Source of the DNA: Armatimonadota bacterium
Lineage (GTDB): Bacteria > Armatimonadota > Armatimonadia > Armatimonadales > Capsulimonadaceae
Assembly (NCBI GenBank): GCA_025354405.1
Contig: JANXMY010000042.1
Coordinates: 13,615 to 77,614 of the forward strand
DNA: 64,000 nt
Direction of reading: 5' to 3'
In this document: positions 26,161-55,359 of the stretch, piece after piece
Numbering within the stretch: position 1 is the stretch's first letter
Layout: every line of letters starts with the position of its first letter
Notes under the pieces: generated by a model
Databases searched by the model: none
What the model was told of the DNA's origin: nothing
What the model saw: the letters and a program-made list of their open reading frames with translations, nothing else
Translations under genes and position numbers: made by a program

Positions 26161-26181
26161 CGGCTTTCCGCAGGAAAGCCG
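26161..26181 (+). promoter_or_regulatory. Intercistronic stem-loop just upstream of the pilQ SD
   Basis: CGGCTTTCC gca GGAAAGCCG, a perfect 9-bp stem, immediately followed by GAAGAGGAG. Confidence 0.3.
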
Positions 26182-26195
26182 AAGAGGAGATTTTC

Positions 26196-27836: not shown

Positions 27837-27875
27837 GCTAGTCTCTACAGAACCGACGCAGCTTTACCGATAATT

Positions 27876-27909
27876 ATGGCAGGGAATAGTCCCTGCCATT
27901 TTCTTGTTT
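27876..27909 (+). terminator. Rho-independent terminator/attenuator between pilQ and pilB
   Basis: ATGGCAGGGA atag TCCCTGCCAT followed by TTTCTTGTTT. Confidence 0.65.
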
Positions 27910-27930
27910 CGGTATCCCCAAGGTAATTCT

Positions 27931-29661
27931 ATGCAGTCAACAGCAGCGGTAGATATTTTCGTCAGCAGCGGCCTTGTTTCCCAAGAGCAACTGACGCAGG
28001 CCCAGGAGAAGCAGCAGCAGTTGAAGACGCAGGAGCCGGTGGGTGACCTGCTGGTTTCCATGGGGTTGATCACCGAGCGCGACCGGGTCAAGTGCCTTGG
28101 CGAGCAATGGGGCGTCCCCTATGTAGACCTGACGGAAATACAGATTCCTGAGGAGGTCACGGCGGCAGTGACGCAGGAGCTGGCACGCCGGTTCAAAGTC
28201 ATCCCCATCGAGCGCACTCCAAAGCGTATTACCCTGGCGATGAAGAACCCGCTGGACATCTTCGCCATCGACGAAATCCGGCTCATTACGGGCAAAGAAG
28301 TCGATGCGGTGATCGCCACTGAAGAGGACATTATCCTCGCTATTTCCGCAAATTACCGCACGGAAGTCAATGTCACCGAAGCGGTTGCCGGAGTCATGCG
28401 GGACATCGATGAAGCGACGATCACCCTGACCGAAGGCAATGTCGGCGGGGATGAAAATATCTCCATCGAACAGCTGAAAGAGCTGTCGGGTGAAGCCCCG
28501 GTCGTCCGCCTGACGAATATGATCATCTCGCGCGGAATTGCCGATAAAGCTTCCGATATCCATATTGAACCGGGCAAAGACGGCCTGCGCATTCGTTACC
28601 GTGTCGATGGTATTCTTTCGGACGGCATGACCCTGCCTAAAAAAGCGCAGGCCTCGGTAACATCGCGCATCAAAATCATGGCGGACATGGATATCTCCGA
28701 GAAGCGTGCCCCGCAGGATGGTCGCATCTCAGCGACTATTGAAGGCCGCCCCTACGACTTTCGCGTTTCAACTCTTCCGGCAGTGTTCGGGGAGAAGATC
28801 GTGATGCGCGTCCTCGACAAAGCGAACATCTCGGTCGGCCTCCACAAGCTGGGCCTGCTGCCCTACACTTACGAGATGTTCGAGTCGATGATCCAGCGTA
28901 CCTACGGTATTATTCTAGTGACCGGACCGACGGGATCGGGTAAGTCTACAACCCTCTATTCGGTGCTGGCAAAACTGAACTCCGGCGAGAAAAATATTTT
29001 AACTATCGAAGACCCCGTGGAGTACGAGCTGTCGGGGATCACGCAGAGCATGGTAAATAACCGGGCGGGTATGACCTTTGCCGCCGGGCTGCGATCCATG
29101 CTGCGGCAGGATCCGAACATTATCATGGTTGGCGAGATGCGCGACCAGGAGACGGCCATGATCGCCATCGAGGCGGCTCTGACCGGGCATCTCGTGCTGT
29201 CGACACTGCACACCAACGATGCCCCCGGCTCGGTCGCACGACTGCTGGATATGGGGGTCGAGAGCTTCTTGATCGCGTCGTCCATCGCCGGAGTTCTGGC
29301 CCAGCGCCTGCTGCGGACAGTCTGCGTCAAGTGCAAAGAGCCGTATTCGCCGCCGAAAGATGCAATCAAGCGGATCGGCATGAATTTGGATATTCTGGAC
29401 AAAAGCGAGGTAACTTTCTACCGCGGCAGAGGCTGCGACCACTGCAAAGGCACCGGCTATAAGGGCCGCGTCGGAGTGTACGAGCTGATGCCGGTCAACG
29501 ATAAAGTCCGGGAGCTGATTCTCGCCCGCGGCTCGTCATACGCTATTCGAGAGGCGGCGATCGAGGCCGGGATGCGAACATTAAAAGACGATGCGATGGA
29601 GAAGATTTTGCTCGGCATCACAACGCTTGAAGAGTCTTTACGCGTGATCTACGCAGGGTAA
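27931..29661 (+). CDS. pilB: Type IV pilus assembly ATPase PilB (GspE family)
   Basis: N-terminal GSPII domain, Walker A GPTGSGKST and a tetracysteine motif (CVKC ... CDHC). The ATG at 27931 lies downstream of the terminator. Confidence 0.9.
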   Translation: MQSTAAVDIFVSSGLVSQEQLTQAQEKQQQLKTQEPVGDLLVSMGLITERDRVKCLGEQWGVPYVDLTEIQIPEEVTAAVTQELARRFKVIPIERTPKRITLAMKNPLDIFAIDEIRLITGKEVDAVIATEEDIILAISANYRTEVNVTEAVAGVMRDIDEATITLTEGNVGGDENISIEQLKELSGEAPVVRLTNMIISRGIADKASDIHIEPGKDGLRIRYRVDGILSDGMTLPKKAQASVTSRIKIMADMDISEKRAPQDGRISATIEGRPYDFRVSTLPAVFGEKIVMRVLDKANISVGLHKLGLLPYTYEMFESMIQRTYGIILVTGPTGSGKSTTLYSVLAKLNSGEKNILTIEDPVEYELSGITQSMVNNRAGMTFAAGLRSMLRQDPNIIMVGEMRDQETAMIAIEAALTGHLVLSTLHTNDAPGSVARLLDMGVESFLIASSIAGVLAQRLLRTVCVKCKEPYSPPKDAIKRIGMNLDILDKSEVTFYRGRGCDHCKGTGYKGRVGVYELMPVNDKVRELILARGSSYAIREAAIEAGMRTLKDDAMEKILLGITTLEESLRVIYAG

Positions 29662-29666
29662 TACAA

Positions 29667-30572
29667 ATGCACTTCCCCACGACCGAACCAACCATGCTGG
29701 ACAGCCTAGAGCAGATTCTTGCCGATTCCGGCGATCCCCTTCCCCTGCCGCAGGTGGTGTTTCGTATCGGCCAGCTGACGGCGAATCCGAAAGCGACCGC
29801 AGTCGATTTGGAAAGGCTGATCGGGATCGACCCGGCTCTAGCAGCACGAGTGCTGGCACTGGCGAACTCGAACTACTACAGCCTGGCGGGTCAGATCTCC
29901 AGTCTGCACGAAGCCGTGGTCTTTCTAGGCATCAAAACCCTGCGAGACATGGCGGTAGCGATCACAGGCTTCAACCAGTTTCTGGGACGCGGCGATGCGC
30001 CTGCCCTCGCACGGCGCTCCCTATGGCGCCACTCAGTAGATACGGCGCAGTGCGCACGGATCGTCATCGGCGCACTTCCTGCCACGGCTAGGGAGACGGT
30101 CGGAGTGGATCAGGCTTACACGGCAGGCCTTTTGCACGATATTGGAAAGCTGGCACTCGACCATTGCCGCCACGGACTTTTCGTCTCGCTGATGCAGATG
30201 GCTCGTGTCCAGAATGTCCGCTACTACGTCATCGAGGCAGAGGTGATGCCCATCGGACATGCCCAGATTGGGGCTTCGCAGGCGCAGCGATGGAACCTGC
30301 CGCCCACACTCTGCGAATCGATTGCCTATCATCACACGCCCCGGGCGGCGACGATTAGCCCAAAGCTGACGGCAGCGGTGGCGCTGGCGAACGAAATCGC
30401 ACACTTTCTGGAAGACACTCCTTCGGGAGATGCTCCCGTCACTCTGGAAGAACTACTGGCATCCTGCCGGGAATCAATGCTGCCGCTGCGCATTCGTCCG
30501 GAAGCCCTGGAGGGAATTGTCCTTACCTGTCGGTCGGAGATGGAGCAGGGCCTGAGTGCATTGGCTTTTTAG
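29667..30572 (+). CDS. HDOD domain signalling protein
   Basis: LPQVVFRIGQLTANPKATAVDLERLIGIDPALAARVLALANSNYY ... GLLHDIGKLAL. It starts 5 nt after pilB and ends 20 nt before pilT. Confidence 0.8.
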   Translation: MHFPTTEPTMLDSLEQILADSGDPLPLPQVVFRIGQLTANPKATAVDLERLIGIDPALAARVLALANSNYYSLAGQISSLHEAVVFLGIKTLRDMAVAITGFNQFLGRGDAPALARRSLWRHSVDTAQCARIVIGALPATARETVGVDQAYTAGLLHDIGKLALDHCRHGLFVSLMQMARVQNVRYYVIEAEVMPIGHAQIGASQAQRWNLPPTLCESIAYHHTPRAATISPKLTAAVALANEIAHFLEDTPSGDAPVTLEELLASCRESMLPLRIRPEALEGIVLTCRSEMEQGLSALAF

Positions 30573-30592
30573 CCGCATGAGGAAATATTTCA

Positions 30593-32146
30593 ATGATCAT
30601 GAATAATGAAGATCTGCTGCCGCTCACTGCGCACAAAAACGGACGCCCGGGAACAGCAAAAGTCGCCGCGCCTCCGGAAGACGAGATGGACAGCTTTTCC
30701 GCCCGGGTAGCGGACACCTTCGACAGCGTAGATCTTCTGCTGGCGGCGCGGGCGGAAGCAGAGGAGGCCGAGTCAAAAGCAAAGGCGATCGGGGAAACGG
30801 TGCTGCCATTTGTCAAAGAAGACCGAAAAGCCGCCGCGAGGTATTCCCAGCCCGAGGTGACTCCCGAAGGCATTCTACGTAACAAGTTCACGATCGGCGG
30901 CACTGCCGATGACGATGAGTCACCGGCGGCGATGAACATGGGTGGCAGCTCTCTGAGTGCCCTCAGCGATGCTTCCAGTGTACAGACGAAGCTCTCCACC
31001 AAAGACTTCATGAGCGGCGGCGAGGGTGACGACTTCGATTTGATGGCTTCTCGTACCGTTGCCGGCGGCGAGGAGCGCGAACTGGCGGATGTCCATATCG
31101 ATGAGCTGCTTCGGCTGACGGTGCAGTCAGGAGCATCCGACCTGCACCTTTCCGTCGGACGCGCCCCAATGGTGCGGAAGGACGGCAAACTGGTCCCTCT
31201 GCCCTTCGAGCTTGCGCAGGAGCGGGATACACAGCGCATCGTCTTCGATATTCTCAATAACTCGCAGATCGAGAAGTTTGAGCGCACCCATGAATTGGAC
31301 TTCTCCTACGGGGTCAAAGGCGTGGGAAGATTTCGCTTCAACGTCTACCGGCAGCGGTCGTCGGTCGGCTGCGCGATGCGTGTCATTCCGAACGTTGTCC
31401 CGAGCATGGAGCAGCTGAAGCTGCCAGCGGTCATGAGAAGCTTCACGCAGAAACATTCTGGCCTGGTACTCGTTACCGGCCCAACCGGCTCGGGGAAATC
31501 GACGACCATCGCTTCCTTGATCGACATCATCAACTCAGAGCGTGAAGCGCATATTCTGACCATCGAAGACCCGATTGAATACCTGCACAACCACAAGAAG
31601 AGCATGGTCAACCAGCGGGAGCTCGGCACAGATACGGACTCGTTTACGAATGCCCTGCGGGCATCGCTTCGCGAAGATCCGGATGTCATACTTGTCGGCG
31701 AAATGCGCGACTTGGAAACAATCTCCGCTGCGATCACACTCGCAGAGACAGGGCACTTGGTGTTCGCCACCCTGCACACCCGCTCGGCCCCGGCAACGAT
31801 CGACCGTATCGTAGATGTCTTCCCTGCGCATCAGCAGGAACAGATTCGAGTTCAGCTTTCCACCAGTATTGAAGCGGTGGTCTCCCAGCAGCTGCTGCCA
31901 AAGATCGGTGGTGGCCGCGTGGCGGCGATCGAGATCATGGTCGCGACCAGTGCGCTCCGAAATTTGATTCGCGAGGGAAAAAGCTACCAAATCTACTCAG
32001 TCATCGAGACCGGCCATCAGTACGGAATGCAGGCGATGGATCGAGTACTGGCCGACCTGCATCGCAGCGGCCAGGTGACATTTGAAGAAGCAGCAACACG
32101 GGCGGTTGACCGGGAAAACTTCCAGCGGCTGGTGAAAGGGTATTAA
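30593..32146 (+). CDS. pilT: PilT-family retraction ATPase with ~165-aa acidic N-terminal extension
   Basis: Walker A GPTGSGKST and the PilT signature ALRNLIREGK. The core starts near residue 168. The ATG at 30593 has a GAGGAA SD. Internal Met151 (31043) is an alternative start. Confidence 0.85.
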   Translation: MIMNNEDLLPLTAHKNGRPGTAKVAAPPEDEMDSFSARVADTFDSVDLLLAARAEAEEAESKAKAIGETVLPFVKEDRKAAARYSQPEVTPEGILRNKFTIGGTADDDESPAAMNMGGSSLSALSDASSVQTKLSTKDFMSGGEGDDFDLMASRTVAGGEERELADVHIDELLRLTVQSGASDLHLSVGRAPMVRKDGKLVPLPFELAQERDTQRIVFDILNNSQIEKFERTHELDFSYGVKGVGRFRFNVYRQRSSVGCAMRVIPNVVPSMEQLKLPAVMRSFTQKHSGLVLVTGPTGSGKSTTIASLIDIINSEREAHILTIEDPIEYLHNHKKSMVNQRELGTDTDSFTNALRASLREDPDVILVGEMRDLETISAAITLAETGHLVFATLHTRSAPATIDRIVDVFPAHQQEQIRVQLSTSIEAVVSQQLLPKIGGGRVAAIEIMVATSALRNLIREGKSYQIYSVIETGHQYGMQAMDRVLADLHRSGQVTFEEAATRAVDRENFQRLVKGY

Positions 32147-38237: not shown

Positions 38238-38392
38238 GGGTTACCTGCTCCTTGAGTTATTGAGATGTGCACTTTTACCCCTCCCACTGCCAGGGTCTAA
38301 CAAATAATCGTGCCGCCCTGTGCCACAAAGTGACATACTTGGTGCCGAAGTTGGGTATAGTATTCCCGCACGGAGTTTCCAGTGGGACATCT

Positions 38393-39157
38393 ATGTTTAG
38401 CGGAATTTACACCTATAATATTGACGGCAAGGGCCGCATCGTCATGCCAAGCCGCTTTTTGGAACGGCTCGGCAATCCTTTTGTGCTGGCTGGCTGCCCC
38501 GGTGGGAATCTAATCGCCGTGTCGCGGCCTGAGATGCTTCCCGGCGCGACGGCAGCCCACGGCTATGTCGAGTGCAGCATCCGGGACCGGACAGGCCGGT
38601 TCGTCATCCCCAGTGCGCTGCGCGAGTTTGCAGAGCTGCATCAGACTGGCGAGGCGACGGTAATCGGTAAAGGAGACGAAGTCGAGATTTGGAACAAACG
38701 CCGCTGGGAGTTCCAGGCTCAGGGCGAGCGGCCGTCTGGCATTCGTTCGGAAGTGTCCTCCGGGTACGCACCATTGCTGGACTTCTCCCCCACTCCCGTA
38801 ACATCCGCGATCATCCGGCAGAAAGCACTCTACGGGCAGCCGTTTTTTGAGGTCGAGGGCATGCTGACAGTCATCGATACCGAGCGAATTATCACGCGGC
38901 TGGAAACGGCCCTGCGCGGCAAGCCACGCACTGTTTTTCTCGATCTGCGCGGCGTGGAAACGATCGACGCGGCCTTCTTCATGGCGATGGAGCCGTTGAT
39001 CGCGCAGCTTGCAACCTATGCCGGGCGGATGGCGGTTCTGACTGAGCGGGTGGATGTGGCGACATTAGTCGAGCGACTCTGTGGATTGAAGTATGTACGT
39101 GTTTTTCGAAATTTGGAATCGGGGCTTTGGTGGCTGGTAGATGAGGGGCACGCGTAA
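38393..39157 (+). CDS. MraZ-like (double SpoVT/AbrB-type) DNA-binding domain fused to a C-terminal STAS (anti-sigma antagonist-like) domain
   Basis: N-terminus MFSGIYTYNIDGKGRIVMPSRF, a second repeat RDRTGRFVIPSALREF, then EVEIWNKRRW, all as in MraZ. The C-terminal ~100 aa (RTVFLDLRGVETIDAAFFMAMEPLIAQLATYAGRMAVL) look like STAS, but with Ala-Ala where the phosphorylatable Ser normally sits. Confidence 0.7.
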   Translation: MFSGIYTYNIDGKGRIVMPSRFLERLGNPFVLAGCPGGNLIAVSRPEMLPGATAAHGYVECSIRDRTGRFVIPSALREFAELHQTGEATVIGKGDEVEIWNKRRWEFQAQGERPSGIRSEVSSGYAPLLDFSPTPVTSAIIRQKALYGQPFFEVEGMLTVIDTERIITRLETALRGKPRTVFLDLRGVETIDAAFFMAMEPLIAQLATYAGRMAVLTERVDVATLVERLCGLKYVRVFRNLESGLWWLVDEGHA

Positions 39158-39244: not shown

Positions 39245-39420
39245 ATTTCGAGTAATGAAAACTCTCGCGCAGCAAGCTGCGGGGTATCTACAGGATTGTC
39301 GGCCTGAGAGCCGACCCTACAGAGTCTCGGCTCCTGAAAGAGCCGAGTATGCCAAAACCGGTAACGGTGCAAGCACCGGGGAATGACACCCGCAGAGATT
39401 CACTCCAAATATTTTCTCCC

Positions 39421-39448
39421 TAAAGCTCTTCGCCGAAACTGCCGATAA
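39421..39448 (+). promoter_or_regulatory. Sigma-28 (FliA/SigD)-type promoter candidate upstream of pilC
   Basis: TAAAG (39421), a 16-nt spacer after TAAA, then GCCGATAA (39441-39448). The consensus is TAAA-N15-GCCGATAA. It ends 38 nt before the pilC GTG. Confidence 0.45.
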
Positions 39449-39485
39449 TGAAGACGGCGCAGAAGAGTGCGCGGGAGGTATTCTT

Positions 39486-40697
39486 GTGGCGACATTTGTT
39501 TATGAAGCAGTAGATCCATCCGGCCGGATCGTAAAAAATAAAGTTGAGGCAGATAATGAGCAGGTCGTGCTGGCAAAGCTCCAGGATCAGCAGTTTCACG
39601 TGATCTCGCTGGGCGAAGCAAAAGCCGGTCTGAAAATGCAGCTTTCCGGCGGCAAAGCTCAAAAGATCAAGCTGCAGACACTCGTAGTCTTTTCGCGGCA
39701 GTTCGCGACGATGATCGATGCAGGTATCCCAATCATCAAGTGTTTGGACATTCTTGAGAGCCAGACCAAAGAAGATGCCATGAAAATGGTCATCAATTCG
39801 ACTCGGAAAGATGTCAAAGGCGGTCTCTCGCTTACGGATGCCATATCAAAGCATCCGAATGCATTCTCCAAGCTTTATGTCAATATGATCCGTGCGGCAG
39901 AAATTGGCGGTATTCTTGATGTGATTTTGGACCGGCTTGCAGGATTCCTCGAAAAGGAAATGGAAATAAAGGGCAAGATCAAATCGGCGATGATGTACCC
40001 GATGATTGTCCTAAATTTCGCGGGCATCATGGTGCTTGCCTTGTTCATGTTTGTTCTGCCGCGATTCAAAGAGATATTTCTCTCAATGAATGTCGAAATG
40101 CCGCCGGTAACGCTGGCACTCTTCGCCGTCGGGGATTGGCTGCAGCAGTATTGGTGGATCGCGCTAATTATTATTATTGGCTCGATTATTGCGTTTAAGC
40201 AATATGCCAAGACGCCTAAAGGCAACTACAATGTCGATAAGCTGAAGCTCAAAGTCCCGATCTTCGGCGATCTGGCCCTGAAACTCAGCATCTCGCGCTT
40301 TGCCCGAACCTTCGGCACACTTATCTCTTCAGGCGTCCCGATGATGCGCTCTCTGGAGATTATCGGAGAGACGTCCGGCAACGCAATTTTGGCGGAAGCG
40401 ATCGTCAATGCGCGTACCTCTATTCGGGAAGGGGCAAAGATCAGCCAGCCACTGGCAGCCTGCGGCCTATTCCCGGCGATGGTGACGCACATGGTAGATG
40501 TTGGGGAAGAAACGGGGCGTCTCTCCGAGATGCTTTGTAAAGTCGCTGACTTTTACGATGACGAGGTAGATGCTATGGTCAAAGGACTGACCTCCATGAT
40601 CGAGCCGCTCCTAATCGTTTTTATGGGAGTGCTCGTCGGCTTTATTGCCGTGTCCGTCATGTCTCCGATCTTCAAGCTGGTTAGCTCAATTCACTAA
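39486..40697 (+). CDS. pilC: Type IV pilus inner-membrane platform protein PilC (GspF family)
   Basis: Two T2SF repeats (FSRQFATMIDAGIPI and FARTFGTLISSGVPM) in 403 aa. The GTG start is 7 nt after GGGAGG. Confidence 0.9.
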   Translation: MATFVYEAVDPSGRIVKNKVEADNEQVVLAKLQDQQFHVISLGEAKAGLKMQLSGGKAQKIKLQTLVVFSRQFATMIDAGIPIIKCLDILESQTKEDAMKMVINSTRKDVKGGLSLTDAISKHPNAFSKLYVNMIRAAEIGGILDVILDRLAGFLEKEMEIKGKIKSAMMYPMIVLNFAGIMVLALFMFVLPRFKEIFLSMNVEMPPVTLALFAVGDWLQQYWWIALIIIIGSIIAFKQYAKTPKGNYNVDKLKLKVPIFGDLALKLSISRFARTFGTLISSGVPMMRSLEIIGETSGNAILAEAIVNARTSIREGAKISQPLAACGLFPAMVTHMVDVGEETGRLSEMLCKVADFYDDEVDAMVKGLTSMIEPLLIVFMGVLVGFIAVSVMSPIFKLVSSIH

Positions 40698-40751
40698 AGG
40701 CCCCGCCCCGCCCCCGGATCGACCGGAACTGCGGCGGGGCGTGGAGTATGC

Positions 40752-42077
40752 ATGGCAGAGACAACGAACGCCGTCGGGGCAACCGTCGGCTGGGATGGTA
40801 GCGATCGACGTGGGCCGGGGCGTTTGGACGATGAGGCCCGTGCGCGACGCCTGCTGACGGAATACAAAAGCGGCGGCCCCGGGGCCGCCGCCGCCCGCGA
40901 CGCGCTGGTCATCCAGTTCCGCCCGCTGGTGCAGAAGCAGGCGCGACATTTCTTCACGTCCTCGGTGCCTCTGGAAGACCTGGTTCAAGAAGGCTTTCTA
41001 GGGTTGATCCACGGGATCGACCAATATGACCCCACCCGCGGGGTGAAGCTGATTACCTACGCCACCCACCACATCGACGGCCATCTGCGGCACTTCCTGC
41101 GAGACCGCAGCCAGATCATCAAAGAGCCAGCATGGCTTCAAGAGATGGCTCAGAAAGTCCGCCGCGAGGCAGATTCCCTGACGCAGGAGTTAGGCAGAGA
41201 ACCGTCGGACAGCGAGGTCGCAACATCCCTTGGCCTGAACGAGTCGGAAGTAGCGCGGATCCGCTCCACGCGCGCCATCTTCTCAGTACAATCCCTCGAC
41301 GAAGCGCAGGAAAATGGGACGGCGCGGGTACAGATCGCCGAAAGTAACACGGAAGCCTCCCGCACAGAGCTTCCGATCGAAGATAAAGTGGTTCTTGAAG
41401 CGGCTTTGTTGCGGCTCAAAGAGATCGAGCAGAAAGTCCTGTACTCTTTCTATTATCAGGATCAGAGCCAGACCGACATTGCCCGCGCTTTGGGCGTCTC
41501 CAACAACTACGTTTCCCACATTCTCAAAAATTCCGCCCGGAAGCTGCAGCAGATGTTCCGCAGCGATGCCGTCCGTGAGGCCGCGCTGCAGTATGAGCGT
41601 CAGCGGCGGCGCCACGCCGCGCATGGCCCGGAAGTAGTCGCGCAGGAGGCGGCGGAGACGGCCCCTACCGTAATCGATTCTGTGACTGGCCTATTCACCC
41701 GAAAGTATTTCGACGATCGCCTGGATGAAGAGCTATCCCGTGCTAAGCGTCACCAACTGGAGTTGTCAATCATACGGGTCCAGGTTGGAGTGGAGCTGCT
41801 AGAAGCTGCACTGTTTGCCAAGATCGCCGACACCGTCAAAGACTGTATGCGCCGCTCCGATCTGGTCGCTCGCTTCGAGGAGCACGAGTTCATCACGCTG
41901 CTGCCTCATACGGGAGCCACGCGTGAAACGGTCGTAGGCCGCCTCCAAAGCCGCCTCTCAGAGCTGGTCGCCACATTCCCCCACCCCTGCACGGTCGCCG
42001 TGGGGCGTTCGTCCTATCCCGCTCAGCGTCAGCGTGCCGACCTGCTGTCGGCGGCACTGCCGCTTGAGGGTGGATAA
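40752..42077 (+). CDS. Group-3 sigma-70 family factor (SigB/F/FliA-like) fused to a C-terminal degenerate GGDEF domain
   Basis: Regions 2-4 span residues 50-270 (LVQEGFLGLIHGIDQYDP, TYATHHIDGHLRHFLRD, an HTH at QTDIARALGVSNNYVSHILKNSARKL). Residues ~307-441 align to GGDEF (DSVTGLFTRKYF ... RRSDLVARFEEHEFITLLP). GGDEF is replaced by EEHEF, the upstream metal/substrate motif is lost, and RxxD is retained. Confidence 0.75.
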   Translation: MAETTNAVGATVGWDGSDRRGPGRLDDEARARRLLTEYKSGGPGAAAARDALVIQFRPLVQKQARHFFTSSVPLEDLVQEGFLGLIHGIDQYDPTRGVKLITYATHHIDGHLRHFLRDRSQIIKEPAWLQEMAQKVRREADSLTQELGREPSDSEVATSLGLNESEVARIRSTRAIFSVQSLDEAQENGTARVQIAESNTEASRTELPIEDKVVLEAALLRLKEIEQKVLYSFYYQDQSQTDIARALGVSNNYVSHILKNSARKLQQMFRSDAVREAALQYERQRRRHAAHGPEVVAQEAAETAPTVIDSVTGLFTRKYFDDRLDEELSRAKRHQLELSIIRVQVGVELLEAALFAKIADTVKDCMRRSDLVARFEEHEFITLLPHTGATRETVVGRLQSRLSELVATFPHPCTVAVGRSSYPAQRQRADLLSAALPLEGG

Positions 42078-42464: not shown

Positions 42465-42836
42465 TCAGGCGGACTGGACATGGATTACTCCTCCCGAACC
42501 ATTTTCCGAATTTGTACCGAGAACGGCGTTAACCGCGCTCGAAAACCGCTGCCAGGAGCGGCGCGACGCGGCGAGTTTGGCGTGACCAGCCTCCGTCAGC
42601 GTGTAGATACGCCGGGAAGGGCCGCTGGGCTGAATTTCCCAGGTGCTTTCCACCAGGCCGTCGCGCTCCAGAATACGCAGCGTGGGATACAAAGCCCCTT
42701 CGCCGACTTTGAGGGCGTCGGCACTGAGGCGCTGAATCTCACGGGCAATCGCATAGCCATGATTTGAGCCATTCGACAGGACCGAGAGGATTAAGATCGG
42801 CGTACTGCCTTTTTTCAATTCCTGATCTTCGTTCAT
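42465..42836 (-). CDS. PadR family transcriptional regulator
   Basis: ILILSVLSNGSNHGYAIAREIQRLS ... GALYPTLRILERDGLVES, a winged-HTH signature. Confidence 0.85.
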   Translation of the reverse strand: MNEDQELKKGSTPILILSVLSNGSNHGYAIAREIQRLSADALKVGEGALYPTLRILERDGLVESTWEIQPSGPSRRIYTLTEAGHAKLAASRRSWQRFSSAVNAVLGTNSENGSGGVIHVQSA

Positions 42837-42845
42837 CTGTCAATT

Positions 42846-42866
42846 ATACATCGCAATCTCATGTAT
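42846..42866. promoter_or_regulatory. Inverted repeat in the PadR/NDH-2 divergent region (candidate PadR operator)
   Basis: ATACAT-N9-ATGTAT at 42846-42866. Confidence 0.3.
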
Positions 42867-42917
42867 GTCAAGGCAGAATAAGTGATTGTCAGGAGGTGTA
42901 TTTGGGTAATATTAACT

Positions 42918-44225
42918 ATGGCTAAGAAACAGATTATTATCGTCGGTGGCGGCTTCAGCGGCTTAAAATTAGCGCAGACTTTAGAAAAGATTGCGGTACC
43001 GCGAGACGACATCGAAGTCACGCTGGTCAGCCGGGACAACTTCCTGCTGTTTACTCCATTCCTGACCGAAACACTGGCTGGAATGCTTGACGAGGGCGAT
43101 GTTGTCTCTCCGCTGCGGGCGTTTCTGAAGAAGACCCGTTTTATTATGGGGGAAGTCACGGCGATAGATGTCAAGGCAAAAACGGTAACTTATCGAAGGC
43201 CATTAAATGATGAAACAGAGACCCTGCAGGCGGATCATCTGATCTTGAGCCTTGGCAGTACGTCATCGTTTTTCGGACAGACGGAGATCGAAAAACTGGC
43301 GTTTACACTGAAGTCGCTGGATGACGCTTCTCTGCTGCGAAACCATCTGATGGCGGCACTCGAGCAGGCAAATGAAGAGACTGACACGACTGCCCGGCAA
43401 GCATTGCTAACCGTGGCAGTCGTCGGAGCTGGGTACACGGGTGTGGAAGCAGCCGGAGCGATTCGTGACCTGATGAAAGACGCCGCCCGCGCCTACTCTC
43501 AAATACGACCGGATGAGATACGGGTAGTGCTGATCGACATGGCCGAGAAGATACTCCCGACCATCGATGCATCCCTTGCAAAATACGCTTTGCGGCAGCT
43601 GAAAAAGCGCGGCATCGAGATTCGCCTAGGACAGAAGATTGAGAACGCCAACGAGAATGCGATCACGCTCAGCAAAGGGGAGATCATACCAACTCGTTCG
43701 CTCCTCTGGTCGGCGGGTGTGATGCCGTCACCACTGACTCAGATGCTAGACTGCCGAAAGGATAGGCGAGGCGCAATTCTGGTCGAGCCAACGATGGCTA
43801 TCAAGGAAATTCCCGGGGTCTGGGCGATGGGCGACTGCGCTTCAATTCCCAATTTACTTGAGGAGGGCCGCCCCTACAAAGGGACGGCACAAAACGCGGA
43901 ACGAGAAGCAAAGAAACTGGCGCGGAATGTTCTCGCCGTGCTGCGCGGAGAGGAGCCTCAGCCGTTCCTCTTTCGGAGCCTCGGAGAGTTCATCGTGCTG
44001 GGCGATCATGTTGCCGTGGCGCAGATCAAGTGGCTCAGGTTCTCCGGATTTTTGGCCTGGTTTCTGTGGCGCACGGTCTACTTGGTCAAAATCCCGCATT
44101 GGAGCCGCAAGGCGCGTGTGGTTTCCGGCTGGACACTGGATCTGCTGTTTGGCCGATCCTCGGTAGAGACGGAAACGCCGAGACTGCTTCGCGGCCATGT
44201 TTTAGACCGAAGCACCAAAAGCTAA
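42918..44225 (+). CDS. ndh: Type II NADH dehydrogenase (NDH-2) / FAD-dependent pyridine nucleotide-disulfide oxidoreductase
   Basis: KQIIIVGGGFSGLKLA and a second fold VAVVGAGYTGVE, then GVWAMGDCA and a C-terminal membrane-associating helix. Confidence 0.8.
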   Translation: MAKKQIIIVGGGFSGLKLAQTLEKIAVPRDDIEVTLVSRDNFLLFTPFLTETLAGMLDEGDVVSPLRAFLKKTRFIMGEVTAIDVKAKTVTYRRPLNDETETLQADHLILSLGSTSSFFGQTEIEKLAFTLKSLDDASLLRNHLMAALEQANEETDTTARQALLTVAVVGAGYTGVEAAGAIRDLMKDAARAYSQIRPDEIRVVLIDMAEKILPTIDASLAKYALRQLKKRGIEIRLGQKIENANENAITLSKGEIIPTRSLLWSAGVMPSPLTQMLDCRKDRRGAILVEPTMAIKEIPGVWAMGDCASIPNLLEEGRPYKGTAQNAEREAKKLARNVLAVLRGEEPQPFLFRSLGEFIVLGDHVAVAQIKWLRFSGFLAWFLWRTVYLVKIPHWSRKARVVSGWTLDLLFGRSSVETETPRLLRGHVLDRSTKS

Positions 44226-46837
44226 GGCTTCTTTTTGCCCTTCTTGTTTTTGTCTTCCGGTGGCGGAGGCAAAAACTCGATGGCAGGAAGGTTTGCCCCA
44301 TCTGGGTGGAATGGCACGCGGCTGAGGCAGAAGGCATCCACAGAGAGCTGATAACGATTGTCACGGCGGCGCGGGCCGGTGACGGTTATCGTGAGCGTAT
44401 GTGGCCCGCGAGTCAATGCCGCATCCCCGAGGTGACTCCAGACAAACTTTCCGGCATAGACATTGCCCTCGGTCTCGACATCCTGGCTTTCGTTTTCCCC
44501 GCCATTGTCAATTCGCCAGGTAAACGGCGACGAGCGGAGAATGGGCGACGAAGAAATCCAGACGGCGAACGAATTCGCTGTGTTCACAGAAAACTTGTAC
44601 TCGGCATGATAGCCACTTTCTGTGTCCGTCCCAGAGGAAGGCGGCTGGCGTATTGTATCCAATGAAAGATACGATCCTCCGGATGACTCAGAGTCGGAAA
44701 CAATTGAGTCGAAGGTGTACGCAGAGGCATTCTCTCCCTCGATCCAGACATAAGGCTGCAGGGCATAAGAGATTTCCGCGATTGCGCGTGCTAAAGTGTT
44801 ATAACGCAGATCAGAGTTTTCGGGCGTATCTTCCAGGGTTTTCTGGGCATAAAACAGCCGCTCCTGCATTAGGTCAATGGATAGCCCCTGCTCTTTGGCC
44901 AGCTTCAGCAGCCGCAGAGCTTCCTTCTCGGCGGCTTCGGCGGCATCGAGCGGCAGAGGAATGCTTGTGACGTTGCTGATAACGATCGGATCGGCTCCGA
45001 CAGGAATGTTATAGGTTCCTTTTTTGTGCTCGATTATTAGCGGCACCCCGCGGGCATCGGTGACTAGCGGCTTTGCACTTTTGGCAAACGGCAGCCGGGC
45101 CTGGGTCATCGCTCCGCGCGGGGACCAGACGACGAAGCGCGTCGGCCCACCATCCGGATCGGCTAACCGGTATCCCCGCAGCAATGGACCGAGCGTGAAA
45201 GCCCCTCCCGATCCGAAGATCGCGCCGACGCGGTAGGAAGGCAGCCACCAGACACCGCTGCTGAGCCGCCGAACTTCCGCCTGCAAATCATTGGCGCCCG
45301 CCGGATACGCAAGGGTGAGCGGACGGGTATTAAGGTCCGCGGCCTCAAAGGAAAGCGTAGAGCCATATTCGCCCAGGCGGCGGGCGGCTTCCGGGGTTTC
45401 TGCCGGGGCGAAAAACCCGCGTGCGCCAAGAGTTTTCAGTGCGTCCCAGTCTCCGGACGCGGCATCCACCGCCCCGCTGTCTGTCCCGATCAGCCAGGTG
45501 GTCCGGGGGTTTTCTTCAGCCTGTGCAAAGGCATAGGCACCAGAGGCCGACGCCGGCATGCTGATGCCGTCAAAGCCGCTGCGCACGTCACTGCTTGTCA
45601 GCAAGGCACTGCGCCCGCTCCATTGATAGACCACGGGGACATTGGCAACACCTTTTTTCAGGACATCGGCCATAGCATTCATGTAGCCGCGTACAGATTC
45701 CATTCGAAATGCTCGGATATCTTCCCAGAGGTGTCCCCCGATACGCGGCTTGTTGAGAACCATATAAGTCGCTTTTTTGACTGGGTCGTAGACAGCGGGA
45801 ACACCTTTCGCCCCAGCCCAGAGTGGGACGCAGCGGGCGGCAACCGTGAAATCGGGGAGGTTTTTATCCATGATCCCCCACCCCCGATTTAAATCATCGA
45901 CATTGTGATTATATTTTTGGTTGAGCCACGCCTCGAAGTCCAACCGGTAGCCATCCGTCGTCGGGATGACATTATCTACTTCCCCACCGAAGCCAACCTC
46001 TTCCGTCAGTGGGTCCAGAAAGAAACGAAATCCGGGGCCTAATTTGACCCGGCTGAAGAATGCCAGGACACGGTCCCGGTACTCGTCGTAACCCTGCCAC
46101 AAGTCCGGCAGGTGGCTCTCCGGAGTACCTGCCAAGTAGAGCCGCTCCGGGTACAGCAGCAGCACATCGCCGGAAGTCCTCACCTTAGGCGCAGCCAAGG
46201 CCGTCTCCGAGTCCATCAGCTGTGCCCGTCCGGTTTCTTCAATTTCACCATCATGAGGAGACACAAGTACGTAGAAGCCACCCGCCAGATTGGGGATATG
46301 CCGGAACTCAACTGGTCCCGAACCGGGTGCGGCAGCATTCCGATAAACCGAAGGCTTGACGATGTACCCGACGAGCGGATCTTTTGGAAAATCAGCGATT
46401 TCCAAACCGTATCGGAAGTTGTTCGCATCCAGATAGTCCAGCACTCGCTGCACGGCGGCAACAGGAATGTGAGTGAGACCTTTTGTCCCCGCAGAAAGCG
46501 TTACTTCCCGGACACCACGCTTACTCAAAACACCGAGGGCGAGCGCGTCCTTCGCCCAATCTTCCTCAGAGCCACTTCCAGCCCACGACTGCGGAGTAAA
46601 GGTCGCGCCAACCGGCAGGTAAGGGACTTTGTCCCAGGTCAAAATATGCGCCTGCCCGATACTCCAGGGATGCATCCCGCCCTTTGAATCCTGATAAGTG
46701 CCGCCCGCTTCCGGCTTCTGCTGCACCGGTGGCGGCAGGGCGGGCGGGACAGCATCTTTTGCAGCGCACGGAATCGCAGGCAATAGGGTAAGAGCAAAAA
46801 GTACGGAGAGAGGCGAGATAAGAAGAGGGTATTTCAT
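44222..46837 (-). CDS. Large secreted hypothetical protein (871 aa) with C-terminal CBM-like jelly-roll and Lys-rich tail
   Basis: Has a signal peptide (LLISPLSVLFALTLLPAIPCAA). The C-terminal WIEGENASAYTFD ... YHAEYKFSV resembles carbohydrate-binding modules. The central domain is not recognised. Confidence 0.5.
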   Translation of the reverse strand: MKYPLLISPLSVLFALTLLPAIPCAAKDAVPPALPPPVQQKPEAGGTYQDSKGGMHPWSIGQAHILTWDKVPYLPVGATFTPQSWAGSGSEEDWAKDALALGVLSKRGVREVTLSAGTKGLTHIPVAAVQRVLDYLDANNFRYGLEIADFPKDPLVGYIVKPSVYRNAAAPGSGPVEFRHIPNLAGGFYVLVSPHDGEIEETGRAQLMDSETALAAPKVRTSGDVLLLYPERLYLAGTPESHLPDLWQGYDEYRDRVLAFFSRVKLGPGFRFFLDPLTEEVGFGGEVDNVIPTTDGYRLDFEAWLNQKYNHNVDDLNRGWGIMDKNLPDFTVAARCVPLWAGAKGVPAVYDPVKKATYMVLNKPRIGGHLWEDIRAFRMESVRGYMNAMADVLKKGVANVPVVYQWSGRSALLTSSDVRSGFDGISMPASASGAYAFAQAEENPRTTWLIGTDSGAVDAASGDWDALKTLGARGFFAPAETPEAARRLGEYGSTLSFEAADLNTRPLTLAYPAGANDLQAEVRRLSSGVWWLPSYRVGAIFGSGGAFTLGPLLRGYRLADPDGGPTRFVVWSPRGAMTQARLPFAKSAKPLVTDARGVPLIIEHKKGTYNIPVGADPIVISNVTSIPLPLDAAEAAEKEALRLLKLAKEQGLSIDLMQERLFYAQKTLEDTPENSDLRYNTLARAIAEISYALQPYVWIEGENASAYTFDSIVSDSESSGGSYLSLDTIRQPPSSGTDTESGYHAEYKFSVNTANSFAVWISSSPILRSSPFTWRIDNGGENESQDVETEGNVYAGKFVWSHLGDAALTRGPHTLTITVTGPRRRDNRYQLSVDAFCLSRVPFHPDGANLPAIEFLPPPPEDKNKKGKKKP

Positions 46838-47571
46838 GGTAATGCGGGAGTCAGCGAAACACGCACATCGTTTCCTTTTTGGGAGAAATCGTTGTTGCGC
46901 AGTGTGAAGACTAAATCTTTCAGCTCAATGCTTTGCGGAACACTAAAAAGAATGGGGAAATCCGTTTTCGCCCCAGGCAGAAGCGGTTTACTCTGGATAG
47001 GCGCACCTTCCAAATCGTATCCAATCGGTGCATAGGATTCACCCTGCTGATCCGCCAGGGCATTGTTTCCGTCTTTCGCGGCAAGCCAGAAAGTCTGCTT
47101 GCTTTTCTGCCCATTGATCATACGGCACTGAATCACAACCAGCTTGTAGCCGGACTTTGGGCTTACCAGCTGTGTCTTCCGATCGAAATTGACGGTGTCA
47201 GCAGGGTAGGAGCTTGGCTCATCACCGGGAGTCTTCATGGTGTAAGTGTCGGGCTGTGCCACACTCAGAACCTGAAAACGCCATCGCCCGTCAAAGAGCA
47301 AATCACCGATCTTGCCCTGCAGACCCTGAACCTGATTGGTGCCGCCCGACTTGGTAATTTCATAGCCGCCAGGGCGTTTGCTCACCACCATGCTGAGTGC
47401 CTTGGCAACGTCGGAAAGCTTTACATAGGGGCTGCCACCAACCGTGCGAACGCTGGTTGAGACAACTTTGCCGTTCATCACGAGGTTCTGGTCTGCCCAT
47501 GCACTGCCCATTGGAAGTGCAAAGACCAGCAGCAATGCCGCTGTCTTCCCCTGTCTACTCACTGAGATCAT
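46834..47571 (-). CDS. Secreted protein, copper-amine-oxidase-N-like stalk domain plus DUF4352-like beta domain
   Basis: Signal peptide, then NGKVVSTSVRTVGGSPYVKLSDVAKAL. An ATGA overlap couples it to the 871-aa gene. Confidence 0.45.
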   Translation of the reverse strand: MISVSRQGKTAALLLVFALPMGSAWADQNLVMNGKVVSTSVRTVGGSPYVKLSDVAKALSMVVSKRPGGYEITKSGGTNQVQGLQGKIGDLLFDGRWRFQVLSVAQPDTYTMKTPGDEPSSYPADTVNFDRKTQLVSPKSGYKLVVIQCRMINGQKSKQTFWLAAKDGNNALADQQGESYAPIGYDLEGAPIQSKPLLPGAKTDFPILFSVPQSIELKDLVFTLRNNDFSQKGNDVRVSLTPALP

Positions 47572-53593: not shown

Positions 53594-53642
53594 AGGCTCC
53601 CAAGAAATCTTCTATCTTCTATATTTTCTCTGTAAACTACCC

Positions 53643-53669
53643 TAAAGAACTCGCGGAAGTCACCGACAA
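53643..53669 (+). promoter_or_regulatory. Sigma-28-type promoter candidate for fliC
   Basis: TAAAG, then N15 counted from TAAA, then ACCGACAA (6 of 8 to GCCGATAA). It implies a 5' UTR of about 200 nt. Confidence 0.35.
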
Positions 53670-53874
53670 TAGAGTTGTACGCAGACGAAGGCTTAGCTGA
53701 TTGATCGGGTCCGAAGCAGACCGCACTCCCAAAGAGCGGTTTCCTGTAAGCCCGCCTCCACAGCCTCGATCGAAACGCGGGCAGTCGAATGCAGTACACC
53801 CAATTGGCAGGAAGCCAAAGTCATACACACTCGTCACACGGTTCAACCCGGTGACCTCAAGGAAGAAAAAAACA

Positions 53875-55359
53875 ATGTCCAGCCGAATCAACACCAACAC
53901 GACCGCAACCGAAGCCGCATATAACCTCGGTATCAACAGCGCCAATGTCGCGAAGAACATCGAGCGCCTTTCGTCAGGCCTTCGTATCAACTCCGCTGCT
54001 GACGACGCTTCAGGCCTGGTCATCTCGGAAAGCCTGCGTGCCCAGTCCGCCGGCCTGTCCCAGGCAACTTCCAACACCAACGATGCTATCAATGTCGTGA
54101 AAACGGCAGAAGGCGCTCTCAACGAAGTTCACGCACTGCTCATCAATATTCGTCAGCTCGTGGTACACGCCGCGAACGTCGGCGCAAACGATCCGACAGC
54201 ACTCAAAGCCAATCAGGACTCCATCGCCTCCGCCGTCGCCAGCATCAACCGCATCGCCGGAACGACCCAGTTTAACAATAAAAATCTGCTCGACGGCTCC
54301 GCCAGCTCTTCGTCCGCAGCCGTCACCGGCGGCACGGGCACTGCAGTCGCAGCCGCCGGAAACAACCTGAGCATCGTTTCCCAGGCCGCCGGCTACGGTG
54401 CATCTGCGATCACCAGCGGCAGCGTTACTTCCACTGCGGCGACCGCGGAGAAGCAGACAGTCACCTTCACAACCGCCGTGACAGCGGGTACATTCGGCGG
54501 CAACTTCTCCATCGAAGGCAAAGCAGTCACCCTGACCGGCTCCGCTAACACGGCGGCGCAGGTTGCGACCGCAATTCAGCAGCAGACGGGCCTGAACTAT
54601 ACTGTGTCCACGGCCGGTTCCACCGCCGTCTTCACCAGCCAGGCCACGGGAAAAGCTGCCTCGACTTCGGATTATTCGGGCCTGACTAACGCCGGCGGTG
54701 GCGCCTACGCCTCAACGGTAGTCACGACGACTGGTGCGAGCGGCTCACTGACAATCAACGGACAGACCAGTGACACGACCAGCGCGGATGGGAAAACGTT
54801 CAGCTTCACCACCGGTGGACTGAAAGGATTGTCCCTCTCGACCAGCTCGACCCTGGGCGGAACCATCGGGACATTCAGCGCGACCGCCGACAAGGCCGTC
54901 TCCGGCCAGGACCTCCAGTTCCAGATCGGTGCGAACGCCGGCCAAACGGTCAACGTCAGCATCGGCAGCGCGAAGGCCAGCAATTTGGGCAGCTACACGA
55001 ATGCCGCCAGCAAGAGTCTGAACCTGGGCGACCTGCTCAGCGGCGGTGCGCTGAACGTCGCCGACCCAACCGGCGCCGCACAGCAGGATGCACTGAAAAT
55101 CGTCGACCAGGCCATTGCGGACGTCTCAACAACCCGCGAAAAACTGGGCGCGCTTCAGAGCAATGTTCTGGAATCGAATGTCCGCAGCCTCGGAGTTGCG
55201 CAGCAGAATACGGATGCCTCCCAGAGCACCATCCGCGACACGAACCTCTCCTCGGAGATTGTCGACTTCACGAAGAACCAGATCCTGGTTCAGGCCGGTA
55301 CCAGCGCCCTGGCGCAGGCCAACCAGGCTCCCCAGGCCATCCTGAAACTGCTTCAGTAA
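53875..55359 (+). CDS. fliC: Flagellin
   Basis: MSSRINTNTTATEAAYNL ... LSSGLRINSAADDASGL at the N-terminus and SALAQANQAPQAILKLLQ at the C-terminus. The ATG at 53875 follows AAGGAAG. Confidence 0.93.
   Translation: MSSRINTNTTATEAAYNLGINSANVAKNIERLSSGLRINSAADDASGLVISESLRAQSAGLSQATSNTNDAINVVKTAEGALNEVHALLINIRQLVVHAANVGANDPTALKANQDSIASAVASINRIAGTTQFNNKNLLDGSASSSSAAVTGGTGTAVAAAGNNLSIVSQAAGYGASAITSGSVTSTAATAEKQTVTFTTAVTAGTFGGNFSIEGKAVTLTGSANTAAQVATAIQQQTGLNYTVSTAGSTAVFTSQATGKAASTSDYSGLTNAGGGAYASTVVTTTGASGSLTINGQTSDTTSADGKTFSFTTGGLKGLSLSTSSTLGGTIGTFSATADKAVSGQDLQFQIGANAGQTVNVSIGSAKASNLGSYTNAASKSLNLGDLLSGGALNVADPTGAAQQDALKIVDQAIADVSTTREKLGALQSNVLESNVRSLGVAQQNTDASQSTIRDTNLSSEIVDFTKNQILVQAGTSALAQANQAPQAILKLLQ

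Follow-up and report, generated by a model that had tools for sequence, protein, structure and literature searches.

A family of group-3 sigma factors fused to a degenerate GGDEF domain in Armatimonadota: candidate c-di-GMP-responsive regulators of type IV pilus and flagellar genes

The subject of this work is a gene at positions 40752–42077 (+) of a 64,000-nucleotide stretch of contig JANXMY010000042.1, from an Armatimonadota bacterium of the Capsulimonadaceae (this whole stretch is called the window). The gene is an uninterrupted open reading frame (ORF) of 441 codons with an ATG start, and its product joins a sigma-70-family factor to a degenerate GGDEF domain. Our reading, to which we give a probability of roughly 60%, is that the fusion is a single-polypeptide alternative (group-3) sigma factor that responds to cyclic di-GMP (c-di-GMP) and serves the type IV pilus and flagellar motility network of Armatimonadota. 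The evidence that carries this reading is a fused domain that has lost its active site and kept its inhibitory site (I-site), and a gene that lies among pilus genes behind a promoter type that also precedes flagellin.

Domain architecture of the fusion protein

Four Pfam matches, Sigma70_r2, Sigma70_r3, Sigma70_r4 and GGDEF, were found in the 441-residue protein, and all exceeded the Pfam gathering cut-offs. Sigma region 2 (TYATHHIDGHLRHFLRD; residues 52–120, positions 40905–41111, +) matched PF04542 with an E-value of 4.4e-15 and aligned with SigF, SigB and WhiG. Region 3 (residues 133–183, positions 41148–41300, +) matched PF04539 (2.3e-9) and is preceded by the invariant IIKEPAWLQE at residues 122–131. 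Region 4 (residues 218–266, positions 41403–41549, +) matched PF04545 (8.5e-9) and carries the family-invariant recognition helix SNNYVSHILK, in which S250, N252, Y253, S255 and H256 are invariant or nearly so among 78 orthologues extracted from the loci, the set used throughout for conservation. Regions 2, 3 and 4 without region 1.1 or a large non-conserved region, and with about 45 residues before region 2, are the make-up of a group-3 factor. The nearest solved structures to this part are SigF (1l0o, 3.7e-26), Staphylococcus aureus SigB (8x6g) and Streptomyces WhiG.

The subfamily is less conventional. The top NCBIfam subfamily model was SigB/F/G (TIGR02980), with 161.3 bits against a curated cut-off of 234.35, and second among the subfamily-level models was FliA/WhiG (TIGR02479), with 116.3 bits against a curated cut-off of 189.6; the protein thus falls below both. 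The 'FLRD' signature of region 2.4 is common with SigB/F/G, but TYATHH and EPAWLQE resemble group 1. As judged from these alignments, the N-terminal 270 residues form a complete group-3 sigma-70-family factor of a distinct lineage, which is neither a canonical SigB/F/G nor a canonical FliA/WhiG.

The sigma part is followed by a helical, Arg-rich connector (residues 269–306, positions 41556–41669, +), which is poorly conserved (mean pairwise identity 0.32), and by the degenerate GGDEF domain (residues 307–435, positions 41670–42056, +). The domain matched PF00990 with E-values of 2.6e-14 in the whole protein and 1.5e-15 in the C-terminal 140 residues alone (53.8–57.7 bits against a cut-off of 23.8). 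This match is split into two stretches because a segment is missing from the domain. The C-terminal part also matched the cyclases DgcR (9e-11) and WspR, and the alignment with DgcR sets RRSD on RKSD and EEHEF on GGEEF. An earlier note on this DNA had read a complete group-3 sigma factor in the first ~270 residues, with SigF, SigB and WhiG now its best matches, and a GGDEF domain after a basic linker at residues ~307–441; Pfam and the structural comparisons below bear out both readings.

An AlphaFold2 model built from a 64-sequence alignment had a mean predicted local distance difference test score (pLDDT) of 80.8, with values above 90 in the GGDEF domain (residues ~310–435), which adopts a beta-alpha-beta-beta-alpha-beta core. 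Residues 1–21 and the linker between regions 3 and 4 (residues 178–206) were disordered, and residues 251–300 formed one continuous helix (pLDDT 62–76) that continues the last helix of region 4.2 into the connector. According to the model, a helix of about 40–50 residues extends from the last sigma region 4 helix into the GGDEF-fold domain. Foldseek retrieved SigB, sigma-S, SigA and WhiG in complex with RsiG on the sigma side. On the GGDEF side it retrieved proteins in which a stalk helix precedes the domain, namely WspR, SiaD, PadC, a GCN4-zipper–WspR fusion (template modelling score 0.63 on the target) and MorA (root-mean-square deviation 3.8 Å, 143 columns).

The active site has decayed while the I-site is retained

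To assign functional residues, the GGDEF sequence of PleD was verified against the Protein Data Bank (PDB) and mapped onto the fusion by a family hidden Markov model (HMM; E = 1.6e-25) and independently by MAFFT, with the same mapping both ways. The motif RRSD (residues 367–370, positions 41850–41861, +) is the RxxD of a primary I-site, with R367 and D370 aligned to R359 and D362 of PleD and to the RKSD of DgcR. R397 (positions 41940–41942, +) corresponds to PleD R390, the third primary I-site residue, and R330 in helix alpha-1 (positions 41739–41741, +) corresponds to PleD R313 of the secondary I-site. Between D370 and E376 lie five residues, LVARF, a spacing identical to that of PleD RAID-LPCRY-GGEEF; the conserved arginine just before the GGEEF motif, PleD R366, is R374 here.

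The catalytic positions tell the opposite story. The GG(D/E)EF position reads EEHEF (residues 376–380, positions 41877–41891, +), which is inactive and unconserved in the family. Active cyclases hold the metal with D327 and E370 (PleD numbering), and of these D327 is replaced by Q344; the substrate segment F330–F338, including K332 and N335, is removed by a 9-residue deletion; the guanine ligand D344 is replaced by A352; and K442 and R446 of the phosphate-binding terminal helix (AKxxGRN) are absent. On this mapping the domain cannot make c-di-GMP, since it has lost its signature motif and, with it, the residues that hold the metal, the N/D pair for guanine and the K/R for phosphate.

Conservation across the family follows the same division. 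R330, R367, D370 and R397 are each invariant in 78/78 orthologues. In a distant set of 67 representatives at 26–40% identity to the window protein, with counts taken over 68 aligned sequences including the window protein, retention was 62/68 for R367, 63/68 for D370, 61/68 for R397 and 60/68 for R330. The RxxD at residue 367 is the sole universally conserved RxxD in the protein. At the signature positions 376–380, each position shows from 3 to 8 or more residue types among the 78 orthologues, and GG(D/E)EF, or even GG, was absent from every member examined (78 orthologues and 67 distant representatives). An active or ancestrally active cyclase fused to a sigma factor was considered and rejected, the motif being found in none of these 145 members. 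As far as conservation tells, the sole strictly conserved functional surface of the domain is the I-site (R367-x-x-D370 plus R397) together with the secondary arginine R330.

The GGDEF domain is also the less conserved half of the protein, with a between-clade identity of 0.33 against 0.50–0.56 for sigma regions 2 and 4; the I-site invariants are therefore functional and not explained by slow evolution. These alignments indicate that the I-site is under strong purifying selection, and a decayed active site beside a kept I-site is the signature of degenerate-GGDEF c-di-GMP receptors. The earlier note had pointed to RRSD exactly five residues upstream of a degenerate EEHEF, and to an intact I-site; its coordinates are exact and the spacing PleD-like, the signature position proves to be unconserved across the whole family, and two further PleD I-site arginines join R367 and D370. 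Its statement that the upstream metal and substrate segment is missing stands for the window protein, which has the 9-residue deletion, and does not extend to the family: the deletion is confined to the Capsulimonadaceae-type clade, and Chthonomonadales keep the length of the segment but not its residues (e.g., ELQGYEQIGRAYGTIRAEETL).

A different account of the same invariants is that the C-terminal domain acts in cis without any ligand, as a dimerisation module, an autoinhibitory built-in anti-sigma or a docking site for a partner, with the conserved Arg and Asp residues making protein contacts. The family-specific invariants R323, E326, E327 and R333 of helix alpha-1, which cluster beside R330, would suit such a role, papers on the extracytoplasmic function (ECF) sigma factors ECF41, ECF42 and ECF56 describe fused C-terminal regulatory domains that act without small ligands, and no c-di-GMP enzymes were seen nearby. 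We nevertheless consider this account rather unlikely. The four invariants coincide one-for-one with the primary and secondary I-site of PleD, and they have been kept at 26–40% identity while every catalytic residue decayed, as is seen in known I-site receptors; if the role were purely structural, there would be no reason for precisely these positions to be kept.

The ligand might also be GTP, pGpG, cyclic GMP-AMP (cGAMP) or another dinucleotide instead of c-di-GMP. Some degenerate GGDEF domains bind GTP at the active site (A-site) as an allosteric signal, and I-site arginines that stack on guanines could accept related guanine dinucleotides. However, the A-site ligands are gone here (D327 to Q, K332 and N335 deleted, D344 to A, and no K442/R446 helix), and RxxD with the R390 equivalent is a c-di-GMP-specific signature, which makes another nucleotide quite improbable.

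No RsiG-, BldD-, PilZ-, MshEN- or VpsT-type c-di-GMP motif was found in the fusion protein. In RsiG the ligand is read by E(X)3S(X)2R(X)3Q(X)3D on a coiled coil in a separate anti-sigma; the fusion lacks this motif, its neighbours are pilC, a PadR-family gene and an NDH-2 gene, and no RsiG-like small helical protein was identified among the neighbours of the fusion gene.

Some relatives deviate from the common pattern. In three proteins (P0290, P0298 and P0314) HxxD replaces RxxD. Four others (P0323, P0317, P0333 and P0356) are family-related group-3 sigma factors with C-terminal extensions of ~100–250 residues in which Pfam finds no GGDEF domain; here either the same domain has become extremely degenerate or something else has taken its place.

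The fusion family is widespread in Armatimonadota

A word-indexed search with the window protein returned 345 relatives (90% identity clusters). The best 120 of the 345 are 54–97% identical to it and mostly 430–450 aa (amino acids) long, and nearly all of them carry precomputed Sigma70 and GGDEF matches, with a few shorter or partial entries. When the search was seeded with the orthologue of Chthonomonas calidirosea, 881 relatives (90% identity clusters) were returned, with the same architecture in 120/120 of the best. A scan of one genome per species of the Genome Taxonomy Database (GTDB) for the sigma–GGDEF architecture, a search that the earlier note had proposed, gave at least 172 species loci. 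All of the named ones belong to Armatimonadota, the carriers being Capsulimonadaceae, Capsulimonas, Chthonomonadales, Chthonomonadaceae and C. calidirosea; C. calidirosea and Capsulimonas are in culture. Among the complete chromosomes of Capsulimonadaceae and Chthonomonadaceae with the gene are OZ255718.1, OZ251980.1 and OZ251990.1. An exhaustive profile search over 1.84 billion cluster representatives yielded ~80–90 full-length fusions at the 50% identity level, of 407–540 aa, with matches that span both halves; ordinary sigma-only proteins (~250 aa) ranked after the fusions. We conclude from these sequences that the family is real and ancient. Public annotation names only 'sigma-70 family' or 'sigma-B factor', and since only the sigma part is named, the receptor domain has been overlooked.

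The earlier note had allowed that an assembly or frameshift error could have joined two genes, which would here be a sigma gene and an adjacent gene for a small GGDEF protein. One related locus does have the gene split: in a long-read metagenome-assembled genome (L036, positions 8001–9333) it is present as two ORFs (281 aa and a second piece), owing to a frameshift sequencing error or because it is a pseudogene. Against this single case stand hundreds of independently assembled genomes from different projects, complete long-read chromosomes among them, in which an uninterrupted ORF of 407–540 aa encodes the same architecture. We rejected the artefact on this ground and regard its probability as negligible. 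The exhaustive profile search also brought up a 1274-aa metagenomic protein with seven tandem GGDEF domains (P0320; Pfam 797 bits, 7 stretches), which is unrelated to the sigma fusion.

The gene is linked to type IV pilus and flagellar genes

Directly upstream of the fusion gene lies pilC (positions 39486–40697, +; Pfam T2SSF 2.9e-59), which encodes the type IV pilus platform protein and ends 54 nucleotides (nt) before it. The earlier note had seen this adjacency and suggested a coupling to pilus or motility transcription; conserved synteny, and the shared promoter type described below, make the link stronger than could be seen from the window. Across the loci, pilC is directly upstream and co-directional in 52/80, including members at 38–42% identity. 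In one locus the order is pilB(MshEN+T2SSE)-pilT-pilC-sigma (L078), and in a divergent member at 34% identity (L081) it is pilM-N-O-P-Q-pilB-pilT-pilC-sigma-pilin-second pilB-like ATPase. In Chthonomonadaceae-type loci the sigma–GGDEF gene stands alone amid unrelated metabolic genes.

The spacer between pilC and the sigma gene holds a GC-rich hairpin (positions 40700–40747, +), the 3' arm of which abuts the Shine-Dalgarno sequence of the sigma gene. Since hairpin and Shine-Dalgarno sequence leave no room for a promoter, the sigma gene is probably transcribed together with pilC. The spacer is 54 nt long in the window, and the hairpin comes right after the pilC stop codon. Nearly all Capsulimonadaceae loci have such a hairpin in the corresponding spacer, where the sequences differ and the pairing is kept (predicted folding free energy −19 to −42 kcal/mol); in some of them a U-run follows. 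In the window and loci L001–L030 the hairpin could set the sigma:PilC ratio as a leaky terminator or attenuator, or it could stabilise the mRNA.

The window also contains a type IV pilus cluster at positions 22439–32146 (+), with pilM, pilN, pilO, an unassigned ORF, pilQ, pilB (MshEN+T2SSE), a gene for an HDOD protein and a gene for a pilT-like ATPase, as assigned by Pfam. Flagellin and fliD lie at 53.7–57.9 kb of the window, which suggests that the organism is flagellated. The flagellin ORF at 53701–55359 (+) was mechanically called from a TTG at 53701, and its real start is the ATG at 53876 (MSSRINTN...). The PilB protein (within 27904–32146, +) has an MshEN domain with two RLGxx c-di-GMP-binding motifs, both of which lack the arginine; for this reason the domain could not be used as evidence of c-di-GMP signalling in the organism. 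After pilB come the HDOD protein and a PilT-like ATPase of 517 aa, in which T2SSE covers residues 281–437 only and a large N-terminal extension is uncharacterised.

The tight and ancient linkage to pilB-pilT-pilC also invites the view that the fusion is a local-signalling adaptor, in which the dead GGDEF domain would form a heterodimer with PilB, PilC or an active diguanylate cyclase. The sigma factor would then be tethered or sequestered at the pilus machine, and transcription would be linked to what the pili do. Catalysis by GGDEF domains requires dimers, heteromers are frequent among them, and the long stalk-like helix before the domain is as in WspR, DgcR and PadC. Such an adaptor does not explain why the conserved surface is the I-site and not the dimer interface, and we hold it improbable as a full account; it is compatible with c-di-GMP binding and not exclusive of it.

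A sigma-28-type promoter is shared by the pilus and flagellin genes

Upstream of pilC we found a candidate promoter of the pilC–sigma operon (positions 39420–39449, +), with −35 CTAAAG, a 15-nt spacer and −10 TGCCGATAAT, which is conserved in all loci of the Capsulimonadaceae clade. An alignment of the pilC-upstream regions of 26 loci showed a fixed element, CCTAA(A/C/T)GC-N13-TGCCGA(T/C)AAT, between unalignable flanks; it ends ~37 nt before the pilC start codon in the window and at somewhat larger distances in other loci. The pattern TAA-N17-GCCGAYAA matched once in the 64-kb window, against 0.04 expected. With a position weight matrix over 2.36 Mb, 32 matches of at least 16 bits were obtained, all upstream of pilC or, in three loci without pilC, of the sigma gene. 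Among pilC-less loci of the Chthonomonadaceae type, 19/26 have (C/A)TAAAG-N14/15-(T)GGCAATAAT 94–236 nt upstream of the sigma gene, and most of the others show −10 variants. In the clade with pilQ-pilB-pilT-pilC-sigma, CCGATAA is the most enriched 7-mer upstream of pilB, and in L081 the gap upstream of the pilin gene contains only a loose CTCAAA-N14-TGGAATAAC.

Within the window, the same promoter type occurs before pilM (CTCTAG-N15-GCCAATAAT, positions 22373–22402, +), between pilQ and pilB (CTACAG-N14-TACCGATAAT, positions 27845–27874, +) and ~205 nt before the flagellin ATG (CTAAAG-N14-ACCGACAAT, positions 53642–53670, +). A spacing-tolerant pattern gave 5 matches against 0.24 expected, four of which are intergenic and on the right strand, before pilM, pilB, pilC–sigma and flagellin. 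The fifth, CTGTAG-N12-GGCCGACAAT at 39295–39322 (−), is intergenic upstream of pilC and points away from it with no obvious gene downstream; it could be a chance match or an antisense or small RNA promoter. The 5' untranslated region of flagellin below its promoter is ~205 nt long and has AAGGAAG at the ribosome-binding site, which resembles a CsrA site.

The element CTAAAG-N14/15-GCCGAYAAT equals, as a sequence, the sigma-28 consensus. The sigma-28 promoter of Pseudomonas aeruginosa fliC has −35 TCTAAAG and −10 GCCGATAA (PMC12784957), and TAAA/GCCGATAA was used in the promoter search in Rubrobacter (PMC8325347). On this evidence the fusion gene is co-transcribed with pilC from a candidate sigma-28-type promoter, and the same type precedes pilM, pilB and flagellin.

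Which sigma factor reads these promoters

The promoter stays with the sigma gene through three different gene arrangements, which argues for autoregulation by the fusion sigma factor, and alternative sigma factors are commonly autoregulated; we consider autoregulation an even bet. The residues that would contact DNA are not those of sigma-28. In regions 2.3–2.4 the fusion has TYATHHIDGHLRHFLRD versus YAITRIRGAMIDELR in WhiG, in region 3.0 it has EPAWLQE versus PRSV(H/R)(R/Q) in FliA/WhiG, and in the region 4.2 recognition helix SNNYVSHILK versus SESRVSQ in FliA/WhiG. Taking the list of sigma-28 DNA-contact residues from P. aeruginosa (PMC12784957), S224, Q228, R80, R97, H100, R101 and R104 become N252, H256, H107, A127, Q130, E131 and Q134, as read from the WhiG alignment. 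Residue 107, the W434 equivalent, is H, C or F in the family, and when it was compared with the −12 base, lineages with F107 had both A and G at −12.

No second group-3 sigma factor was found in the window and the 80 loci with the family HMMs. Since the organism has flagellin and FliD, a canonical FliA may exist elsewhere. Among cultured Armatimonadota, Fimbriimonas has been described as non-motile, with pili and 'one fliA'. Most likely the fusion targets pilus and flagellar genes and positively autoregulates its own; the gene may instead itself belong, as a late member, to a FliA regulon. The predicted regulon concerns the CTAAAG-N15-GCCGATAAT promoters. Under both alternatives the gene is part of the motility network, whether it provides the sigma factor of that network or comes late in a cascade driven by FliA.

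A wider reading, which we think less likely than not, would make the family the master sigma factor of motility in Armatimonadota, a one-component, anti-sigma-free and c-di-GMP-gated factor in which ligand binding at the fused I-site domain turns the specificity subunit of RNA polymerase on or off, and which reads sigma-28-like promoters with non-sigma-28 residues, autoregulates pilC–sigma and co-ordinates type IV pili and flagellin. If true, it would be a convergent covalent counterpart of RsiG-WhiG of Actinomycetota.

Proposed mechanism and points that weigh against it

In the mechanism that we propose for a c-di-GMP-responsive sigma factor, the ligand would bind the I-site residues R367, D370 and R397, probably in the form of the intercalated dimer that PleD and WspR bind. 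The bound dimer would then bridge either to a second copy of the protein, at its R330 face, or to a surface rich in arginine on the connector (QRRRH) or on sigma region 4. Such bridging would immobilise or dimerise the C-terminal module, which is probably attached rigidly to sigma region 4, and the immobilised module would alter the joining of core RNA polymerase or the engagement of the −35 element. By analogy with RsiG-WhiG, and because the network concerns motility, high c-di-GMP is somewhat more likely to inhibit than to activate the factor (about 60:40). High c-di-GMP generally means motility off.

Several points weigh against this proposal. c-di-GMP binding is predicted from the conservation of the I-site, which is circumstantial support, and the alpha-1 invariants listed above have no explanation in the I-site and may belong to a protein–protein interface. 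The sigma domain is not sigma-28 by sequence, although the promoters match the canonical sigma-28 consensus, and a separate canonical FliA elsewhere may read them. Neither the window nor 1.2 Mb of related neighbourhoods yielded an active GGDEF, EAL or HD-GYP gene, so that c-di-GMP metabolism in these organisms is assumed. Finally, the predicted template modelling score (pTM) of the AlphaFold2 model is 0.36; its inter-domain geometry is unreliable, and the structural mechanism is drawn by analogy only. The inter-domain packing of the model had been considered as a clue to autoinhibition and was dropped for this reason.

Other features of the neighbourhood

Between the gene of an oxidoreductase that uses flavin adenine dinucleotide (FAD) and pilC, an ORF at 38267–39157 (+) encodes a MraZ/SpoVT-AbrB-type DNA-binding domain (PF02381, 4e-14) joined to a STAS domain whose match is weak and falls below cut-off (PF01740, 6e-4). 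Apart from the window, only the near-identical locus L001 has this ORF, which resembles an insertion ahead of the pilC promoter. In the partner switching of SigB/F, STAS domains serve as anti-sigma antagonists, and given this role the position beside a SigB/F-like sigma factor is curious. Downstream of the fusion, a perfect 12/12 sigma-70 consensus promoter (TTGACA-17-TATAAT; positions 42843–42871, −) lies directly upstream of the PadR-family gene (42465–42836, −), divergent from the NDH-2 gene. The adjacent genes at 44222–46837 (−) and 46834–47571 (−) encode signal-peptide proteins of 871 and 245 aa without Pfam matches and are conserved only in L001. In another locus (L031, 9891–11144, −), an extra sigma gene immediately downstream of and convergent with the sigma–GGDEF gene is the housekeeping rpoD (NCBIfam RpoD, 520 bits).

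Comparison with known systems

c-di-GMP acts on transcription through repressors and activators. The earlier note knew of no sigma factor that carries a c-di-GMP receptor in cis, and full-text literature searches likewise found no published description of a sigma–GGDEF protein. A 2021 paper names RsiG-WhiG as the only known sigma/anti-sigma pair targeted by c-di-GMP, and a 2026 preprint on sigma-28/WhiG diversification mentions neither GGDEF fusions nor Armatimonadota. If our reading is true, the fusion would be an independent c-di-GMP route to RNA polymerase specificity, the first in one polypeptide and the first via a GGDEF I-site. The system is tractable, as it calls for a single protein and ligand, three point mutants and one defined candidate promoter, and would suit the question of how a domain attached to sigma region 4 signals to core binding or promoter recognition. 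It would also give a handle on the regulation of motility and attachment in Armatimonadota, which are poorly studied and largely uncultured, and in whose type IV pilus cluster the gene has been conserved.

One of the closest known systems is RsiG-WhiG of Streptomyces and Rubrobacter, where the activity of a group-3 sigma factor is set by c-di-GMP, as we propose here. In Rubrobacter, c-di-GMP controls a sigma-28-family factor that drives type IV pilus genes, and the regulon consists of such genes with TAAA/GCCGATAA promoters, the same type that precedes the pilus and flagellin genes in the window; WhiG-like sigma factors of Actinoplanes drive both type IV pili and flagella. The differences are equally clear. 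The sensor of WhiG is the separate anti-sigma RsiG with its E(X)3S(X)2R(X)3Q(X)3D coiled-coil motifs, whereas the putative sensor here is the I-site of a fused degenerate GGDEF domain, and WhiG is a sigma-28-family factor of Actinomycetota, whereas the present sigma factor is not sigma-28 by sequence and comes from another phylum. FliA/sigma-28 itself is likewise a group-3 factor associated with flagellin and pilus genes, and the fusion's own operon carries a promoter of the TCTAAAG/GCCGATAA type. Unlike FliA, the fusion scores below the subfamily cut-off, differs in its DNA-contact residues, has an extra domain and shows no evident FlgM-type regulation.

As a receptor, the C-terminal domain resembles the degenerate-GGDEF I-site receptors PelD, PopA, SgmT, Bdellovibrio CdgA and Xanthomonas GdpX6, in which a GGDEF fold with a dead site uses an RxxD five residues before the signature as the ligand pocket. 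Their outputs are a glycosyltransferase complex, a protease adaptor, a histidine kinase and others; in contrast to the fusion, none is a sigma subunit of RNA polymerase. It also resembles the product-inhibited cyclases PleD, WspR and DgcR, all three primary I-site residues and the secondary arginine of PleD being present, with a stalk helix before the domain as in WspR and DgcR. Those proteins are active cyclases in which binding at the I-site immobilises the catalytic domains, whereas here the immobilised partner would be the sigma module.

Regulation of a sigma factor in cis by an appended domain, instead of or besides an anti-sigma, is known from ECF41, ECF42, ECF44/CorE, ECF56 SigG1 and OrbS. 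These are group-4 factors, with sigma regions 2 and 4 only, and their extensions are SnoaL-like, tetratricopeptide repeat or Cys-rich metal-binding domains, whereas a group-3 factor is joined here to a second-messenger receptor fold. Taken together, these comparisons place the sigma–GGDEF fusion as a new combination of known modules with a plausible mechanism, and not as a categorically new system.

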